From Promethearchaeota archaeon (GTDB lineage: Archaea; Asgardarchaeota; Thorarchaeia; Thorarchaeales; Thorarchaeaceae): 64,000 nucleotides of DNA. The notes below the pieces were generated by a model, which was not told the DNA's origin, did no database searches, and saw only the letters and a list, made by a program, of their open reading frames with translations. Below are positions 244 to 57,065 of the stretch, piece by piece (the first letter of the stretch is position 1; each line of letters starts with the position of its first letter). The stretch is taken from assembly GCA_014728035.1 (NCBI GenBank), contig WJMJ01000101.1:57358-121357 (forward strand), in the 5' to 3' direction. The position numbers and the translations under genes were made by a program.

Positions 244-297
244 TTACACCCTATGTACAATTGATGTCGGCAATATATAATATTAACTAACAATGTC

Positions 298-355
298 AGG
301 CCCTCATCCTCGGGCCTAAGCTCACCCACGATGGTGAGTAATCTCCGGATGGAGA
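298..355. ncRNA. Three adjacent GC-rich hairpins in the CRISPR leader region (possible structured RNA)
   Basis: AGGCCC/GGGCCT (298-317), CTCACC/GGTGAG (321-338), TCTCC/GGAGA (342-355). Confidence 0.35.
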
Positions 356-373
356 CCATACAACGGGTGTAAT

Positions 374-700
374 GTGACGTCCACGTACGCATGGGAGGAT
401 GGAAAGGAGGGCCAGCCATGGCTTCGATCTACAAGTGACGTCCACGTACGCATGGGAGGATGACACGCCTTAGTCTCTCAGAGTCACAGTGGCCGGTGAT
501 GCCCACGTACGCATGGGAGGATGGCTTGATGTGGTTGCTTCGGCACAAAAACATTGCGTGATGCCCACGTACGCATGGGAGGATGGACTATGTAGCCGCG
601 TGCCGCTCTTTCCGAACGTGACGCCCATGTGGGAGGATGGCCGACGGCGAACGGTGTAGATTCGGCGTGACGCCCACGTACGTATTGTACGCGTGGATGA
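374..700 (+). CRISPR. Mini CRISPR array, type I-E-like geometry, no cas genes in window
   Basis: 28-nt repeat GTGAYGYCCACGTACGCATGGGAGGATG at 374, 435, 496, 558; 6-nt-deleted copy at 618; degenerate copy at 667; unique spacers of 33, 33, 34, 32, 27 nt; internal hairpin CCCACG-TACG-CATGGG; decay toward the right end. Confidence 0.88.
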
Positions 701-717
701 TATAGGAGGTATATATT

Positions 718-996
718 ATGGGATATTATATTCGTACATGGTTCGCTTGGGTGATATCGGCACACCATTTTTGCGATACTATTTCTTTGGCAGCAAGAAA
801 ATCCAAATTTGACAAAGGAATTGAATCATTGAGAATGATCTATCAAACAATAGACAATCTTGGATGGCGATATTATCCAATGAAATTATATATATATCTG
901 TATCATAATGATCAGATGGATCTTTTCTCATTATATAATGAGATGTCAATATATAAGGATTCGGACAAAAATATTAAAACAAAATTGCCTACATAG
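718..996 (+). CDS. Hypothetical protein directly downstream of the array
   Basis: 92-aa ORF with strong AGGAGGT RBS at 704-710. Confidence 0.45.
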   Translation: MGYYIRTWFAWVISAHHFCDTISLAARKSKFDKGIESLRMIYQTIDNLGWRYYPMKLYIYLYHNDQMDLFSLYNEMSIYKDSDKNIKTKLPT

Positions 997-3572: not shown

Positions 3573-4742
3573 ATGATAGAAGAATTACGTAGTCAATTAA
3601 AGCGTTACGAAAACATCATTGAAAACCGCAAAATAAATCCGGTTGAAGAAAATCCTGAATCTCAGCGTATATGGCAGAACCGTATTTGTGACCGTATGGA
3701 TGAGATCAGGGATAAAATCAAGTCACTAGAACAGAAACAAAATCATACCCACAGCAACGCCAAGAAAATCATTTTGAAAAATGAACAATCTCCAGGTGAT
3801 ATTGTGATGTTAACTGCGGCGGTACGTGATCTGCATCTGAGCCATCCTGGGAAATTTATTACGGACGTCCGCACCTTATTCCCAGATATTTGGTTGCACA
3901 ATCCATATATAACGTCACTTAATGAAGAAGACGATGATGTGGATGTTATAGATATGCAATATCCAATTATACATAATAGTAATGATGGGGCTTACCATTT
4001 TATACATGGTTTTAGCATGTTTCTGGAAGATCAACTTGGGATTAGAATTAAGGTGCATAAATTCCAAGGAGATATTTATTTAAGCGATGAAGAAAAATCC
4101 TGGGTCAGCATGGTCGAGGAACATTATACACACGAGGATACACCGTTTTGGTTAATATGTACTGGTGGTAAGACTGACTATACTGCAAAATGGTGGATTG
4201 CAGAATATGCACAAGAGGTGGTGGATCATTTTGTTGGCAAGATTCAATTTGTACAGTTTGGTGCGGAAGGAGAAGGACATTATCATCAACGTCTACATAA
4301 TGTGATAGATTTGATAGGCAAAACTGATATTCGTATGTTTATGAGATTGATGTATCATGCGGATGGTGTAGTGTGCCCCGTGACTATGGCCATGCATCTA
4401 GCTGCAGCAATACCAACAAAACCAGGAAAGCCAAAAAACAGGGCATGTGTGGTGACAGCGGGTGGTAGGGAGCCAAGTAATTTTACATTTTACACAAATC
4501 ATCAATATCTTCACACTAATGGCGCGTTGAAATGCTGTGATAATGGGGGTTGTTGGAAAAGTAGGACTGATAGACTGGGCGATGGAGACCATAAAGACAA
4601 CGAATTGTGCGTTGATACTGTGCAATTCAATGGTCGTAAGGTACAGCGTTGTATGTACGAATGCGTGAAGCCAATAGATGTGATCAGAGCAATTGAGAAA
4701 CATTATGATGGTGGGGCATTGAATTTTGGAATATCAACATAA
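3573..4742 (+). CDS. GT9 (ADP-heptose:LPS heptosyltransferase-like) glycosyltransferase with N-terminal coiled coil and Cys-rich C-terminus
   Basis: PGDIVMLTAAVRDL, DLIGKT, MHLAAA; paralog of 46314..47378. Confidence 0.8.
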   Translation: MIEELRSQLKRYENIIENRKINPVEENPESQRIWQNRICDRMDEIRDKIKSLEQKQNHTHSNAKKIILKNEQSPGDIVMLTAAVRDLHLSHPGKFITDVRTLFPDIWLHNPYITSLNEEDDDVDVIDMQYPIIHNSNDGAYHFIHGFSMFLEDQLGIRIKVHKFQGDIYLSDEEKSWVSMVEEHYTHEDTPFWLICTGGKTDYTAKWWIAEYAQEVVDHFVGKIQFVQFGAEGEGHYHQRLHNVIDLIGKTDIRMFMRLMYHADGVVCPVTMAMHLAAAIPTKPGKPKNRACVVTAGGREPSNFTFYTNHQYLHTNGALKCCDNGGCWKSRTDRLGDGDHKDNELCVDTVQFNGRKVQRCMYECVKPIDVIRAIEKHYDGGALNFGIST

Positions 4743-6153
4743 ACTGGGCATCGTATTGCCTACTAATATACGAGGAATCAGAGATAAGATTCTGATTAAG
4801 GAATCTGGTAGGTTCGTATCACAATGTCAAAGTAAACTTAATGCGCTTGTGGCAGTATCAAATTGTGACGATGATATATTGGGATTCAAGGCAGATGTTC
4901 ACATAAAATGTGATAAAGATGGTATTGTGAATCCAACTATCAGAATGATAGATAGATTGAAGAACAAATGTCAATATATAATGAGAGTCACACAAGACAC
5001 AATTATCGATTTTGATGAATTCATAAAGACATTCGATGAGGTTGATGGCACTGATAATTTTATATGTGGTGGCAAGGCATCGCTTAACAACATACAGATG
5101 GAACGCACTAAAGGTAGGGCCAATGCATTAGGAATATCTATTTCTGATGGTAGAGATTACGTGCAGGGCAATGTCATGTTGGCACCTACACGTGTGTGGT
5201 TGGAATATTATTATCGTGTGGCTCAGGTGGTAAAACACTATGGTGATGATTCATTATTGTCTCGTATAGCTAATAAAAATGGCATTGAATTGCGATTTGT
5301 GGAAAAGTTCTGGCAACATAAGCACATAAAAGTAGATAGAGTCAATATTAAGAAACCATTAATAGCTAGTTTCCCGAGATCTGGAACGCACTTTTTAATA
5401 AATACTATTAAAGATAACTTCATAGACGTTGATAATGGGTGGGTAGATGTTGTCCATGGTGTTAAGCACAGGTGGGTTAAAGATGTCAAACCAGATGGTA
5501 GTAATTTGTCAGAAAAGATCAGGGAACAGTTGATCAAATATGGCGAATCGCCCGTGCGCAAACCTCTTAAGACACATTATCAGTTTTACTTCCTGGAGCG
5601 CCATTGGGATGTGATAAAAGAACTCTATGATGTGTTCTATATAATTCGCGACCCAAGAGACGTAATGGCAGCATGCTTCAATTATTATAATAAAACTAAT
5701 TTTGAGATTTTCATAAAAGAGAAGAATTTCTCTAAATTTTTGCGCCATGAGCTTTGGAATGCACATTCAGAGACACAACCATTTTCTTTTAGCCTCGTTA
5801 AACCTCGCAATATAGTTGACAAATGGAATAAGCACGTCCATAGCTGGATGACATTTGTAAATAGAGGCGTGACTTTGATTAAATTTGAGGACTTAAATCA
5901 AAATCCGACAAGAGTAATAAATCATATCGAGAATGAAACGAGTCAGAATAAAATAAATGACAAAATTAAAATAGTTGACATTAATGATAAAAGATATCGA
6001 CCTGATTACGAGGGAGATAATCCGAGAGGTATTGGGTGCTGGAAGCATTATTTTAATTTAGATGACATTGACTGGTTGTATGGGGGAATCAATTTTGCAC
6101 AGATATATACAAATACGACAGCCGAAAACCAAACAGCACACAACATCCATTAA
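4726..6153 (+). CDS. Glycosyltransferase-like N-terminal domain fused to a PAPS-dependent sulfotransferase domain
   Basis: ASFPRSGTHFL (5'-PSB), LKTH, YIIRDPRDV (3'-PB), RGIGCWKHYF; GT-A call for the N-terminus is weaker. Confidence 0.75.
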   Translation: MEYQHKLGIVLPTNIRGIRDKILIKESGRFVSQCQSKLNALVAVSNCDDDILGFKADVHIKCDKDGIVNPTIRMIDRLKNKCQYIMRVTQDTIIDFDEFIKTFDEVDGTDNFICGGKASLNNIQMERTKGRANALGISISDGRDYVQGNVMLAPTRVWLEYYYRVAQVVKHYGDDSLLSRIANKNGIELRFVEKFWQHKHIKVDRVNIKKPLIASFPRSGTHFLINTIKDNFIDVDNGWVDVVHGVKHRWVKDVKPDGSNLSEKIREQLIKYGESPVRKPLKTHYQFYFLERHWDVIKELYDVFYIIRDPRDVMAACFNYYNKTNFEIFIKEKNFSKFLRHELWNAHSETQPFSFSLVKPRNIVDKWNKHVHSWMTFVNRGVTLIKFEDLNQNPTRVINHIENETSQNKINDKIKIVDINDKRYRPDYEGDNPRGIGCWKHYFNLDDIDWLYGGINFAQIYTNTTAENQTAHNIH

Positions 6154-6904
6154 AAAGAAGCTACTCGTCAGAAAATCAAATAAAATTCCGGTTGTGATTC
6201 GTAGTCGAAATAGATGCGAATTTCTAGATGTTACATTAAGAAGTATGATTTCAACCGGAATTTATCCTGATTTGATTATTGATGATGTTAGTGACGATAA
6301 ATTGACTAAACAATATTTGTTCACAGATCAAAAAATGCACATGAGAGTTAGATGGCCAACAGATGCCGAATGGATACAATACGTTGGAAAATTAAATAAT
6401 ACCTGGCACACAAAAGGTATCCGTTATTCTCATAAAGTAGTTCAGCCTACGAATCGCAAGGGTGTGTTGGGTGGTGTGTTTTGGTGTCTAACTTATGCAT
6501 TCAATAAATTTAACGCAGATGCTGTTATATTGATAGAGTCTGATGTACTGTTTTGCTATAAATGGTATGATACTTTAATACAAGAATACAATATAACACC
6601 GGATGCTGGCATTGTTGCTGGTTTTGTTTGCCAATCTGGATTCATACCAAATGTGTTGATACTGGTAACTAGAGATTTATATAACAAAAGATGTATGTCA
6701 TTTAATCGTGAGTATGATATTAATAAAACTGATGGCGATAGGGCATTGAGAAGAATGTGTAAAAATGTGGGGTTAACTGTTAAATGCACTGATAAATCTG
6801 TTTGTCAGCATATTGGATTTATATCATCGTGTCACATGAGGGCACGTAAAAAAGACCGTGCAATAAGTAAAAGCCTAATTGATAGTTTGTGTTTTAATGC
6901 ATAG
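6095..6904 (+). CDS. GT2/GT-A-like glycosyltransferase
   Basis: IPVVIRSRNR..FLDVTLRS, IIDD, LIESDVLF, CQHIG; likely TTG start at 6095 with GGGGGA RBS; paralog of 9238..10038. Confidence 0.7.
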   Translation: MHRYIQIRQPKTKQHTTSIKKKLLVRKSNKIPVVIRSRNRCEFLDVTLRSMISTGIYPDLIIDDVSDDKLTKQYLFTDQKMHMRVRWPTDAEWIQYVGKLNNTWHTKGIRYSHKVVQPTNRKGVLGGVFWCLTYAFNKFNADAVILIESDVLFCYKWYDTLIQEYNITPDAGIVAGFVCQSGFIPNVLILVTRDLYNKRCMSFNREYDINKTDGDRALRRMCKNVGLTVKCTDKSVCQHIGFISSCHMRARKKDRAISKSLIDSLCFNA

Positions 6905-14962: not shown

Positions 14963-16657
14963 ATGTTTCCAAGAAAACCATATGATGGCCAGCAAATTAT
15001 TGATACACGAGGAATGCTGCACGAGTTTGATGCAGAAATAGATGCGTGGGTTGTAAAGGGATATGTAGATGTCTACAGTGATGTTACGGAACTAGATGAC
15101 GGCCTCGTCCCGCCATCGCTGAATAATTTCATTAAGTCTATAGACAATGCTGATTTTAATAGTGTAAAAATAGGTCACAGTGATGCGTATTTTTGTTTAT
15201 TTTATTCTGATGATCATTCTATTGCATTTAGAATTGAACATAATCCCAACAAGAATCTACGCATTGAATTAGGCAGTAAGGCAATCGTGCGTAAATTTTT
15301 ACGCACTGCATGTGTTGGGCCACGTGGTGAAAAAGGAATGGTCGGGGATGACGGAGATGATGGTGACCCAGCAGATAATGAACCGATATATAATATAGCA
15401 CCATCTGATGGGATTTTTACCGTTGATAACACCGCAGTATCATATCCTATAGATACTCCGGTTTCTCTTCGCCTTTATAAAGATAATAATTTAATTGCTG
15501 ATATACGAGTGACGCTTGATGACCAGGCGTCATTATATTTTGTACATGATGGTTATAATGTAACAAATTATGATATCAAACTTGGTAACAATAAAATATC
15601 TGGTGTTATTAATCTTGATGGAGATTTGTCTGGTGAATGGGATTATAGGGTTAGACAAGTAGGTCCTGACGGAGATCCTGGTCAGGATGGATCATCATTC
15701 CTGGAGATCCGACAGTCTGTTTTATCTGATCCAGATTTAGTTAGCAGAAGTGCTGTAGCTCATATATTTAAAGTTATAAATAATATTGCGCAGACAGCTA
15801 TTGATTTTTCATCTACTACTTGTGTGTCAAGATTAACATCAAGTGGATCTTGGCGTTTTAGTCTTGATAACTCATCATTACTATCATGCAAGATATCGAC
15901 GCAGGAGTGTAAGGATTTATGGTCATATAACTATGAGCATGAGGACATTAATTCTAGTGCGCTGGAAATGCCAACATGGGTGCCTAGTAGTAACTGCCCC
16001 AATTATAGAAGACATGATCAATTCAAATTTGAATGGACTGATCAGGCTACGTCAACTGTACCATATGATTTTATAAATGAACCGAGACCTGATGAACAGT
16101 GTTGTCAGGAAGACTTCTTCTTGTGTCCTAATCTTGGTGATGCGTGTCCTCCGGATGTGTCAATAGATCCACCATTACCACCATTTTTGCCACCTCTGCC
16201 TAGTCCTAGCTCATCCTCATCTAGTTCTGCAGTATCTTCATCTAGTTCATCTTCATCTAGTTCATCTTCATCTAGTTCATCATCTTCATCTAGCTCGTCT
16301 AGCTCATCTTCTATCTCATCATCTTCAAGCTCATCATTTTCGTCTTCAAGTTCATCGTCTAGCTCGTCTAGTTCCAATTACTCATCGAGTAGTTCTAGCT
16401 CCTCATTACTGCCATCTAGCTCGTCATTATCGTCATCTAGCAGTTCATCAAGTGGTTATTCGCCGCCAAATTGTGGATTTTGCATTATGTCTAGTGGTAC
16501 TGATTGTGACGATTGTTATAATAATTTTCTTGCTGAATGGGGTGATATAAGTTCAGTATGTGGATCTGGGTGTTCACCCAATTACGACTGCATATTCTAT
16601 TCAGGCATAGGCACATATTTGTGTGGATGTGTTGTAATTGATAGTTTGTGCCCGTAG
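14963..16657 (+). CDS. Collagen-repeat, poly-Ser, Cys-rich tail/baseplate fibre protein
   Basis: N-terminal FPxxPxxGQ domain, GXY repeats, poly-Ser 16208-16453, Cys-rich tip. Confidence 0.7.
   Translation: MFPRKPYDGQQIIDTRGMLHEFDAEIDAWVVKGYVDVYSDVTELDDGLVPPSLNNFIKSIDNADFNSVKIGHSDAYFCLFYSDDHSIAFRIEHNPNKNLRIELGSKAIVRKFLRTACVGPRGEKGMVGDDGDDGDPADNEPIYNIAPSDGIFTVDNTAVSYPIDTPVSLRLYKDNNLIADIRVTLDDQASLYFVHDGYNVTNYDIKLGNNKISGVINLDGDLSGEWDYRVRQVGPDGDPGQDGSSFLEIRQSVLSDPDLVSRSAVAHIFKVINNIAQTAIDFSSTTCVSRLTSSGSWRFSLDNSSLLSCKISTQECKDLWSYNYEHEDINSSALEMPTWVPSSNCPNYRRHDQFKFEWTDQATSTVPYDFINEPRPDEQCCQEDFFLCPNLGDACPPDVSIDPPLPPFLPPLPSPSSSSSSSAVSSSSSSSSSSSSSSSSSSSSSSSSSSISSSSSSSFSSSSSSSSSSSSNYSSSSSSSSLLPSSSSLSSSSSSSSGYSPPNCGFCIMSSGTDCDDCYNNFLAEWGDISSVCGSGCSPNYDCIFYSGIGTYLCGCVVIDSLCP
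16208..16453 (+). repeat. Poly-serine coding tract (~82 aa)
   Basis: Mixed TCN/AGY codons. Confidence 0.95.
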
Positions 16658-54773: not shown

Positions 54774-57065
54774 ATGATATTTTACAATAATAATCCATAC
54801 TATCTCTATCTGATTGATGGAGATGGCAATGATATCCGATTGCCACCCAAATCCGTGGCTGAATTATCATCATTTTTCTTACGTTATGTGCCCAACCAAT
54901 TAAGTTTAAACCAGGATGATCTTGATCCCTATATAATAACTTCTATTGAAGTCGGTCAGGAAGTTATTATTTATAGTTCCAATTTATCAATAGACGGTTT
55001 ACGTTGTGTTGTTGTGGATAGGGATGAGGTTAATTACGCAGTAAATATTCCTGATGTGGGCAGAGTGTGGTTTCCATATCAAGTGGTGGCATTACCTTCA
55101 ACAAGTAGTTCTAGTTCTTCTAGTAGCCTAAGTAGTTCTTCGAGTTCATCTTCAAGCTCATCTAGCCTATCAAGCTCAAGTTCATTATCTAGCTCATCTA
55201 GTTCGTCTAGCTCAAGCTTTTCTAGCTCAAGTTCATTGTCTAGTAGCTCATCATCGAGCAGCTTGAGTTCTAGCTCATCATACTCTAGTTCATCATTTTC
55301 TTCTAGTAGTTCATTATCATCCTCGTCTAGCTCCTACTCTTCATCATCTTCTTCTAGTAGTTCTTTGTCATCCTCGTCTAGCTCCTACTCTTCATCATCT
55401 TCTTCTAGTAGTTCTTTGTCATCTTCATCAAGTTCATCAAGTAGTTCACTATCATCATCCTATTCTTCATCTAGTAGTTCAAGTAGAAGATCATCATCCT
55501 CGTCTAGCATAAGCTCTTCTAGTTCATCAAGTAGTTCATTATCATCCTCGTCAAGTTCATCTTCTTCATCCTACTCATCATCTAGTAGTAGAGTATCGTC
55601 ATCTAGTTCTAGTTTTAGTTCTTCGTCTTCATCAAGTAGTTCATTATCATCTTCATCAAGTTCATCAAGTAGTTCACTATCATCATCGTCAAGCTCATCG
55701 TCATCATCCTATTCTTCATCTAGTAGTTCGAGTAGGATATCATCGTCTAGTTCTAAATCGTCATCAAGTTCTAGTCTAAGTTCCTCAAGCTCGTCTTCAT
55801 CAAGTAGCTCATTATCATCTTCGAGTAGCTCATTATCATCATCGTCAAGCTCATCTTCTTCATCATATTCATCATCTAGCTCGTCTAGTAGGAGATCGTC
55901 ATCTAGTTCCAGCCTGAGTTCATCATCTTCCTCATCATTGTCTTCATCATCTAGCTCGTCAAGTTATTCTAGCTCAAGTAGTTCATCAAGTTCTCAGTCA
56001 AGTTCTTCTAGCTCGTCAAGTTATTCTAGTTCAAGTAGTAGGAGATCGTCATCTAGTTCAAGTCTGAGTTCATCATCTTCTTCAAGTAGCTCATTATCTT
56101 CCTCATCTTCGTCCTACTCTTCATCTAGTAGTTCAAGTAGTTCATTATCATCCTCGTCAAGCTCATCATCATACTCTAGTAGTTCAAGTAGAAGATCGTC
56201 ATCATCGTCTAGCCTAAGTTCTTCAAGCTCGTCTTCATCAAGTAGTTCATTATCATCTTCGTCAAGCTCTCTTAGTAGTTCAATATCAAGTAGTTCAAGT
56301 TCTAGTCTATCCTCATCAAGTAGTAGTTCTAGCTTATCTAGTTCAAGTAGTTCTAGCCTGTCCTCATCAAGTAGTAGTTCTAGTTCCAGTCTATCTAGTT
56401 CGAGCAGTTCAAGTGCAACAGTTGTTATTCCAGGTGATCTTATAAGTTCAGATTTCACGTCAGATAGAATTTATGTTCATGATGGCATTACTTCTACAGT
56501 AAATGATAGCTTTGCGGCACCAAATAACACAATTGGTGATATGGCCTTTGATGGTACCAATCTTATGAGTTGTGGTGAGGCTGGATCGACAGATAGAATA
56601 TATGTACATAATGGTATTTCTGTAACTATAAGCAATAGTTTTGCTGCTCCAGCATCTGGTCCTAAGGGGCTAACATATACTGGCACAGATTTAATAAGTG
56701 CAGATAGACCATCTGGTGTTATTTATATTCATGATGGTATTTCAAGTACTATACAAAGTAGTTATGCTGGGCCAGATGCCTATATGTCAGGTCTTGCATG
56801 GGATGGTGATAATTTAATTTCATGTGGATATAATAGTGATAAGGTTTATATCCACAATGGAACCTCCTCAACCATAACTAATAGCTTTTCTACACCAGGA
56901 TCAGTGCCGTATGGTCTTACATATGACGGAAATCATTTGATAAGTTGTGATTATGGAACTAACAGAATATATATTCATAGCGGAATAACTTCTACAATTT
57001 CCAACAGTTTTGCAGCACCTAACAATGATCCGAGTGGATTAACATTTAGTGGAGGACCATTATAA
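54774..57065 (+). CDS. Poly-Ser stalk protein with C-terminal 5-repeat beta-propeller
   Basis: 437-aa Ser tract; propeller paralogous to the C-terminus of 20508..21827. Confidence 0.8.
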   Translation: MIFYNNNPYYLYLIDGDGNDIRLPPKSVAELSSFFLRYVPNQLSLNQDDLDPYIITSIEVGQEVIIYSSNLSIDGLRCVVVDRDEVNYAVNIPDVGRVWFPYQVVALPSTSSSSSSSSLSSSSSSSSSSSSLSSSSSLSSSSSSSSSSFSSSSSLSSSSSSSSLSSSSSYSSSSFSSSSSLSSSSSSYSSSSSSSSSLSSSSSSYSSSSSSSSSLSSSSSSSSSSLSSSYSSSSSSSRRSSSSSSISSSSSSSSSLSSSSSSSSSSYSSSSSRVSSSSSSFSSSSSSSSSLSSSSSSSSSSLSSSSSSSSSSYSSSSSSSRISSSSSKSSSSSSLSSSSSSSSSSSLSSSSSSLSSSSSSSSSSYSSSSSSSRRSSSSSSLSSSSSSSLSSSSSSSSYSSSSSSSSSQSSSSSSSSYSSSSSRRSSSSSSLSSSSSSSSSLSSSSSSYSSSSSSSSSLSSSSSSSSYSSSSSRRSSSSSSLSSSSSSSSSSSLSSSSSSLSSSISSSSSSSLSSSSSSSSLSSSSSSSLSSSSSSSSSSLSSSSSSSATVVIPGDLISSDFTSDRIYVHDGITSTVNDSFAAPNNTIGDMAFDGTNLMSCGEAGSTDRIYVHNGISVTISNSFAAPASGPKGLTYTGTDLISADRPSGVIYIHDGISSTIQSSYAGPDAYMSGLAWDGDNLISCGYNSDKVYIHNGTSSTITNSFSTPGSVPYGLTYDGNHLISCDYGTNRIYIHSGITSTISNSFAAPNNDPSGLTFSGGPL
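55104..56414 (+). repeat. Poly-serine coding tract (437 aa) with internal 51-nt perfect tandem duplication (55317-55367 / 55368-55418)
   Basis: Direct translation and alignment by eye. Confidence 0.95.

Follow-up and report, generated by a model that had tools for sequence, protein, structure and literature searches.

Natural nuclease-dead Cas12f proteins have only recently been shown to work as RNA-guided transcription factors, in Bacteroidota, and dCas12f-sigmaE activators have been described by Hoffmann, Wiegand et al. (Nature 2026, PMC13472631). The same paper mentions in passing (text and Extended Data Fig. 1a,b) a distinct dCas12f cluster located near CRISPR arrays, with putative scaffolds upstream and possible repression as its role; knowledge of this array-associated branch has so far been limited to its genome context. 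In the TnpB family, TldR proteins provide a precedent for nuclease-dead RNA-guided repressors, and bacteriophage is mentioned in the corresponding preprint (Wiegand et al., bioRxiv 10.1101/2023.11.30.569447). In case of the type V-F CRISPR-Cas12f systems, the repeat pairs with a separate scaffold (tracrRNA) region. Our literature search has returned no paper on a phage-borne, array-associated dCas12f or on dispersed arrays led by scaffolds.

The window of the present study is a 64-kb stretch of DNA, the right part of the 121-kb contig C70, which belongs to a bin of 4.3 Mb in 173 contigs. Close to its left end lies a short repeat-spacer array, for which the original prediction had proposed a type I-E signature. 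Our study has led to another reading, which we consider likely, namely that the array is a remote guide-RNA array of a phage-encoded dCas12f (P0001, on contig C131), carrying a promoter and a scaffold copy of its own and placed far from the effector gene.

By description only, P0001 is like the array-associated dCas12f cluster of PMC13472631, being C-terminally truncated, RuvC-dead and encoded beside arrays, with a scaffold upstream. The present system differs from that cluster in its T4-like phage of lytic type, in its six scaffold-led mini-arrays, four of which lie away from the gene, and in its conserved partner protein. The dCas12f-sigmaE systems (PDB 9n9c, 9n9m) are alike in fold (E 1e-16), in the dead RuvC domain and in the position of the guide at the 3' end of the scaffold. 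They use single chimeric guides and an operonic rpoE, whereas arrays are found here, and no rpoE, HTH or sigma-factor domain was detected among the ORFs adjoining P0001. The best structure and sequence matches of P0001 are those to type V-F proteins (AsCas12f 8j12/7wju, OsCas12f 9nzq, Un1Cas12f1 7c7l). In comparison to these, the catalytic residues and the zinc finger/RuvC-III segment have been lost, the scaffold stretch complementary to the repeat is only 7-8 nt long and forms the loop of a hairpin, the array is fused at its 5' side to the scaffold, and neither Cas1 nor Cas2 nor Cas4 was found near the P0001 arrays. TldR and TnpB carry one guide per locus and belong to another protein family, whereas the phage units are arrays. 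In the ISDra2 TnpB structures a guide-adjacent segment pairs with an upstream loop, and the window unit would be similar in this respect.

Results

Anatomy of the window array

The window array comprises four clean 28-nt repeats, which vary only at positions 5 and 7, and two decayed copies to their right (Table 1). The proposed mini-array of 28-nt repeats and its rightward decay are hence confirmed, and none of 100 dinucleotide-preserving shuffles yielded any repeat match. Each spacer is unique, and the first bases of spacers 1 to 5 read G, A, G, G and G, in agreement with the earlier statement that G opens four of the five. The repeat also has the AGGATG 3' end and the C.A mismatch in the plus-strand stem which had been reported for it. 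The GC content is 0.565-0.59 over 301-700 (57-59%) against 0.275-0.43 in the flanks, with a background of 35-40%. Tandem Repeats Finder did not report the array, as is expected from its unique spacers, and in an Rfam search of positions 1-1200 no family, CRISPR-DR families included, covered the repeats at E <= 10. Small ORFs overlapping the array (e.g. 489-659 on the plus and 484-768 on the minus strand) were rejected as spurious, because the 61-nt period is incompatible with a reading frame.

The extent of 374-700 given by the original prediction holds for the array itself; the feature as a whole begins further left, with a promoter-like site and a 78-nt scaffold ('leader') RNA which abuts the first repeat. 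Transcription from this site would begin a few bases 5' of the scaffold (about 290-296), and minimum-energy folding predicts three hairpins in the scaffold, the loop of the first carrying the putative anti-repeat. The promoter and scaffold are bracketed by a 15-nt inverted repeat (87% complementary, 243-257 and 359-373), the left arm of which overlaps the -35 box; weaker echoes of it occur before the units at C70:19.3 kb and 19.9 kb. Further upstream, nrdD (anaerobic RNR) ends near window base 34 and is followed by a 45-aa ORF (106-243) with a CC...CxxC cysteine pattern. On the other side of the array, the ORF 718-996 has no family match. It may be co-transcribed with the array, since no terminator-like site lies between them, and this would not imply that it is a member of the system.

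Repetitive tracts of another kind were also noticed in the window. An 18-nt tandem repeat at 1914-1992 encodes an acidic tract rich in Asp, Glu, Tyr and Lys within the ORF 1616-2002. At 16288-16414 and 55297-56364 (C70:73645-73771 and 112654-113721), short words recur at 40-95 nt spacing inside long ORFs; one 11-mer is common to both places, and the words are probably a repeated protein motif.

Table 1. Positions of the features of the window array and of the effector locus on contig C131 (L014).
Feature	Sequence	Position	Strand	Remarks
Sigma-70-like promoter	Window	254-281	+	10/12 consensus positions, 16-nt spacer; putative function
Scaffold ('leader') RNA	Window	296-373	+	78 nt; abuts repeat 1; three hairpins by minimum-energy fold
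Scaffold hairpin 1	Window	stem 299-303/312-316, loop 304-311	+	minimum-energy fold
Anti-repeat	Window	304-311	+	loop of hairpin 1 (8 nt); complementary to the 7 terminal nt of each repeat and the base behind them
Scaffold hairpin 2	Window	321-326/333-338	+	minimum-energy fold
Scaffold hairpin 3	Window	342-346/351-355	+	minimum-energy fold
Scaffold linker	Window	356-373	+	after hairpin 3
Repeat 1	Window	374-401	+	28 nt
Spacer 1	Window	402-434	+	33 nt; first 21 nt match RBS/start codon in two GC-rich IMG/VR contigs, possibly by chance
Repeat 2	Window	435-462	+	28 nt
Spacer 2	Window	463-495	+	33 nt; no match in searches
Repeat 3	Window	496-523	+	28 nt
Spacer 3	Window	524-557	+	34 nt; no match in searches
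Repeat 4	Window	558-585	+	28 nt
Spacer 4	Window	586-617	+	32 nt; no match in searches
Repeat 5, decayed	Window	618-639	+	22 nt; 6-nt deletion inside hairpin; 4-bp stem base and 3' end retained
Spacer 5	Window	640-666	+	27 nt
Terminal degenerate repeat	Window	667-699	+	33 nt; insertion and altered 3' end
92-aa ORF	Window	718-996	+	strong RBS; directly 3' of array
Scaffold and variant-repeat array	C131	6886-7110
dCas12f gene (P0001)	C131	7211-8602		between two arrays
245-aa ORF	C131	8701-9438		weak Csm4/RAMP-like matches
Small ORF	C131	ends 9641
Scaffold and array B	C131	9648-9990
Partner-protein homologue, 230 aa	C131	10076-10768		directly after array B

Six copies of the scaffold on phage contigs

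A nhmmer search of the whole bin returned exactly six copies of the 78-nt element (E 2e-27 to 4e-20), and its conservation begins abruptly at a single base, window position 296. All six copies stand directly before an array. Five of these arrays are of the same repeat family, found outside the window at C70:19.4 kb, C70:about 19.9-20.0 kb, C131:9.7 kb and C74:9.4-9.6 kb; the sixth copy, C131:6886, has a variant repeat behind it with only the 3' end in common. Between the window scaffold and the other copies, 0-3 of the 78 positions are different, and a TATAAT box is located directly 5' of the scaffold in four copies. The polarity is alike in all arrays, with promoter and scaffold on the left and decayed repeats on the right, and decay is further advanced in those at C70:19.4 kb and 19.9 kb than in the window array. 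Searches of IMG/VR with scaffold and repeat patterns gave no match, or one chance match within a coding region.

Contig C70 is viral, as seen from a P2-I-type tail protein domain, a T4-type clamp loader and virion proteins; the nearest relatives of the clamp loader are those of uncultured gut phages and Bacillus phage G (about 40-44% identity). The claim that the array sits on a large phage with no adjoining cas gene is thus borne out. The tetranucleotide composition of C70 correlates with that of C131, C74 and C27 at r of 0.95-0.96, against 0.81-0.82 with the chromosome of the bin. For C70 and C131 together, r is 0.96, against 0.81-0.86 with the host contigs, and the only gp23 major capsid gene of the bin is on C131. 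From composition, identical scaffolds and non-redundant core genes, C70 and C131 would appear to belong to one T4-like phage; the assignment does not come from an assembled join, and contig-end overlaps link C70 with C97 and C122 and no others, and C131 with C27 alone. The first 6 kb gave no near-identical match among GenBank phages. Beside the phage array on C74 (L015), an HsdM-type N6 methylase, an RNA ligase and an RlaP-type RNA-repair nucleotidyltransferase are encoded (4966-6621 and 3652-4737).

A second, related phage is represented by C152, with NrdD 61-74% identical to that of C70 and a clamp loader 49% identical. At its positions 1-300 (locus L016, minus strand) there is a divergent unit, the repeat of which has in common only the GGAUGG-type end. 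In this scaffold hairpins 1 and 2 are retained in altered sequence; stem 1 shows a C-G to A-U exchange, and the 6-bp stem 2 is entirely different. The 8-nt loop still pairs with the end of its own repeat. No dCas12f gene of the C152 phage was found in the bin.

The effector protein P0001

The ORF of P0001 (463 aa) on C131 is flanked by two scaffold-led arrays, and it is single-copy in the assembly. The protein matches the PADLOC profiles Cas12u3 (3.6e-19) and Cas12f (9.1e-19) and, by sequence, OsCas12f 9nzq (1.5e-6). The model predicted from a 40-sequence alignment has a pLDDT of 87.3 (34 for the single-sequence AlphaFold model), and its best PDB match is AsCas12f 8j12 (E 1.3e-18), with the dCas12f-gRNA complex 9n9c also matched (E 1.0e-16). 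The RuvC-I Asp position is occupied by Ala275 and the RuvC-II Glu position by Phe385. The chain ends 16 residues past the last RuvC strand, so that the zinc finger and RuvC-III are absent. Among the 39 closest relatives, the RuvC-I position never has Asp, the commonest residues of the RuvC-II position do not include Glu, and the tails are 0-33 residues long. Alignment and model together argue that P0001 is a nuclease-dead Cas12f (dCas12f), with the RuvC D-E-D triad lost across the 40 aligned members. An exhaustive HMMER search has placed 189 representatives in its family at E <= 1e-3; a word-indexed protein search, and a search of IMG/VR, found no relatives. As a fallback, an effector encoded left of the window had been suggested. 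This comes close to the finding in so far as the effector is encoded elsewhere; the place is C131, and not C70 to the left of the window.

Homologous loci and covariation of loop and repeat

The DNA of five P0001 homologues (L065-L069), which lie on unrelated metagenome contigs, was compared. In L065 (37% identity) the gene is followed, after about 160 nt, by an array of 32-nt repeats. L066 has the order gene, 205-aa partner, scaffold and array of 36-nt repeats, and in L069 the gene and a 219-aa partner are accompanied by three units, each of a scaffold and a mini-array (29-nt repeat, period of 61 nt). In L067 and L068, a 29-nt repeat with a 61-nt period lies upstream of a 463-aa homologue, and it is visibly similar to the repeat of the window; L067 shows the array alone, without the scaffold, because the contig is cut there. 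In L066 and L069 the partner gene comes after the effector gene, and the L066 partner matches the 230-aa ORF after array B on C131 (E 8.7e-15). No significant Pfam match was obtained for this conserved partner protein.

In L065, L066, L069 and both phages, a GC-clamped scaffold hairpin presents a loop of 7-8 nt which is complementary to the last 6-8 nt of its own repeat. When the loops of these five lineages were set against all repeat ends, own combinations scored 8, 8, 6, 6 and 6 (G.U allowed) against 2-6 in the cross combinations, and the own-pair sum was reached by one of 120 permutations, the true assignment only. For the window unit alone, the longest complementary run anywhere in the scaffold is not significant against shuffled tails (295 of 2000 shuffles), and the case for pairing therefore rests on position and covariation. 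Of 23 units, 19 have G and 4 have A as the base that follows the repeat, and none has C or T. Pairing with the first U of the scaffold loop would account for this leading purine no less well than a base derived from the PAM.

Composition and possible targets of the spacers

The mean GC content of the spacers is 54.5%, compared with 39.5% in the bin and 39% in the phage contigs, and among 5000 draws of 18 random 33-mers from the bin the mean GC was never above 46%. A host- or self-targeting role leaves this high GC content unexplained. When the first 20 nt of the spacers were compared with the bin, no site with two or fewer mismatches was found, except for one array B spacer at two mismatches, which was equalled by a reversed control. 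The spacers matched no GenBank phage or plasmid, and the seeds of spacers 2-4 are absent from IMG/VR. The first 21 nt of spacer 1 (402-422) are identical to L071 3303-3323 and L072 1283-1303, on two near-identical GC-rich IMG/VR contigs, where they form the RBS and ATG of a small HExxH-motif gene between a head-protease/scaffold gene and the capsid gene. The remainder of spacer 1 is unmatched at these places and no other spacer matches L071 or L072, one extra match lying in the repeat. We treat the 21-mer as a lead, as it may mark a target or could be a chance match resembling a Shine-Dalgarno sequence with a start codon.

Discussion

The guide-array reading is built on the anatomy of the locus, the scaffold and repeat held in common with the effector locus, the Cas12f fold, the lost catalytic residues and the covariation of loop and repeat; transcription, processing, use of the scaffold in trans, DNA binding and a biological target and effect are its predicted elements. 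The transcript would begin with the three-hairpin scaffold at its 5' end, followed by repeat, spacer and the further units. The loop of hairpin 1 would pair with the last 7-8 nt of the repeat, directly 5' of the guide, forming a pseudoknot as in the omega-RNAs of TnpB and the guide RNAs of Cas12f. The first unit would thereby fold in cis as a natural single guide, and the later repeat-spacer units would recruit the scaffold in trans; such use would explain why six scaffold copies are kept by the phage for about 22 spacers. Together with the conserved partner of about 205-230 aa, dCas12f would bind, and not cut, DNA that corresponds to the spacer in its repeat-proximal part. Binding would most likely block transcription, possibly via the partner. 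Several observations speak against the dCas12f model: the effector gene is on a contig other than that of the array, the searches yielded no convincing target, the spacers are rich in GC, the longest-run statistic is not significant for the window unit alone, and decay has affected the final two repeats.

The same decay suggests that the locus might be a non-functional relic, i.e. a duplicate of the effector-side arrays which is decaying at a remote site. Damage is present in two of the six repeats, the searches brought up no target, the spacers have retained a foreign GC content, and the decay is still further advanced at C70:19.4 kb and 19.9 kb. However, the 0-3 scaffold differences per 78 positions, the intact promoter and the four clean repeats are found although an AT-rich genome should erode unconstrained GC-rich DNA. 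Moreover, the effector gene has drifted to 41.7% GC whereas scaffolds and arrays remain at 53-58%. We judge a relic to be unlikely.

A structured 5' leader or regulatory repeat of non-CRISPR nature, acting on downstream genes (e.g. by protein-binding GGA motifs or as an attenuator), would fit with the absence of a terminator-like site between the array and the ORF 718-996 and with the recurrence of GGAUG at the ends of the repeats and within hairpins 2 and 3 of the scaffold. However, the six units precede different genes, and the repeat-spacer architecture, the polarity and the link to Cas12f homologues on unrelated contigs speak for guide RNAs. We hold such a leader to be very unlikely. A CsrB-like GGA sponge, iterons and a 5'-UTR element were likewise ruled out by the repeat-spacer architecture and the link to the effector.

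The window array resembles type I-E arrays in repeat length, period and the hairpin in mid-repeat, and the spacers of which four in five open with G could accordingly be taken for those of a cas-less phage array which loads its crRNAs into the type I-E Cascade of the host. The repeat may also bear a loose resemblance to GC-rich I-E repeats. The geometry of I-E arrays (28-29-nt repeat, 32-33-nt spacers, period of about 61) is indeed found here, but it is not specific, as the same geometry (29-nt repeat, 61-nt period) occurs in L067 and L069 beside dCas12f homologues. The stem is mismatched and the 3' handle is different from those of type I-E, and no I-E proteins accompany the array. Searches for Cas6e (PF08798), Cas7e (PF09344) and Cas3-HD (PF18019) gave no match at E <= 0.1 in the 97.9%-complete bin, with a sensitivity that is limited, the Cas6e and Cas7e controls having rung only in Thermus. 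The bin's only Cas1 adjoins a 37-nt repeat which is unrelated, and in the other host arrays the repeat is 31 nt long. The CRISPR loci of the bacterial part of the bin are located on C104, C36, C83 and C143, with Cas1 and the 37-nt repeat, and with arrays of the 31-nt repeat at contig ends; the host spacers (n=8, from three arrays on C36, C83 and C104) match nothing on the phage contigs.

The proposed search for the repeat in other collections has identified neither a host nor a subtype. None of 85 genomes of the host family contains the repeat, and it is likewise absent from IMG/VR and from GenBank phages. In JGI metagenomes only one chance match in a gene was obtained, and a pattern of two repeat ends gave 29 matches among GTDB species representatives, all of them 8-nt microsatellites or unrelated repeats. 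The repeat and scaffold of the window array, on the other hand, are also those flanking the dCas12f gene of the phage. The type I-E reading of the window array is thus largely refuted, and the use of host Cascade, as put forward originally, is barely credible. An RNA anti-CRISPR, i.e. a repeat mimic or decoy titrating host Cas proteins, would suit short, cas-less, phage-borne arrays in several copies, but it is hardly tenable when the host arrays have unrelated 31- and 37-nt repeats and no match elsewhere offers a repeat to mimic, when a decoy needs neither unique spacers of constant length nor a co-varying scaffold loop, and when a cognate effector gene is present.

Returning to the proposed guide arrays of a phage dCas12f, a wider proposal can be made tentatively, as a possibility on which we would not rely. 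The lytic T4-like phage may run a distributed, programmable gene control, in which six mini-arrays at various sites, possibly with various times of expression, feed one dCas12f and its partner, silencing or redirecting transcription of specific DNA in a rival mobile element or in the host. The first guide would use the scaffold in cis and the remaining guides in trans, and the purine at the repeat/spacer boundary may mark either a TAM-linked acquisition or a pairing rule.

Conclusion

If the proposed reading is true, RNA-guided gene control would extend to the biology of virulent phages, in the form of a dCas12f, a partner protein and six separately promoted units. It would also provide a compact programmable DNA binder of 463 aa, with a simple rule of co-varying scaffold and repeat which can easily be tested and re-engineered. 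For annotation, it would mean that 'orphan' phage arrays with type I-E geometry can serve an effector derived from type V and encoded far off.
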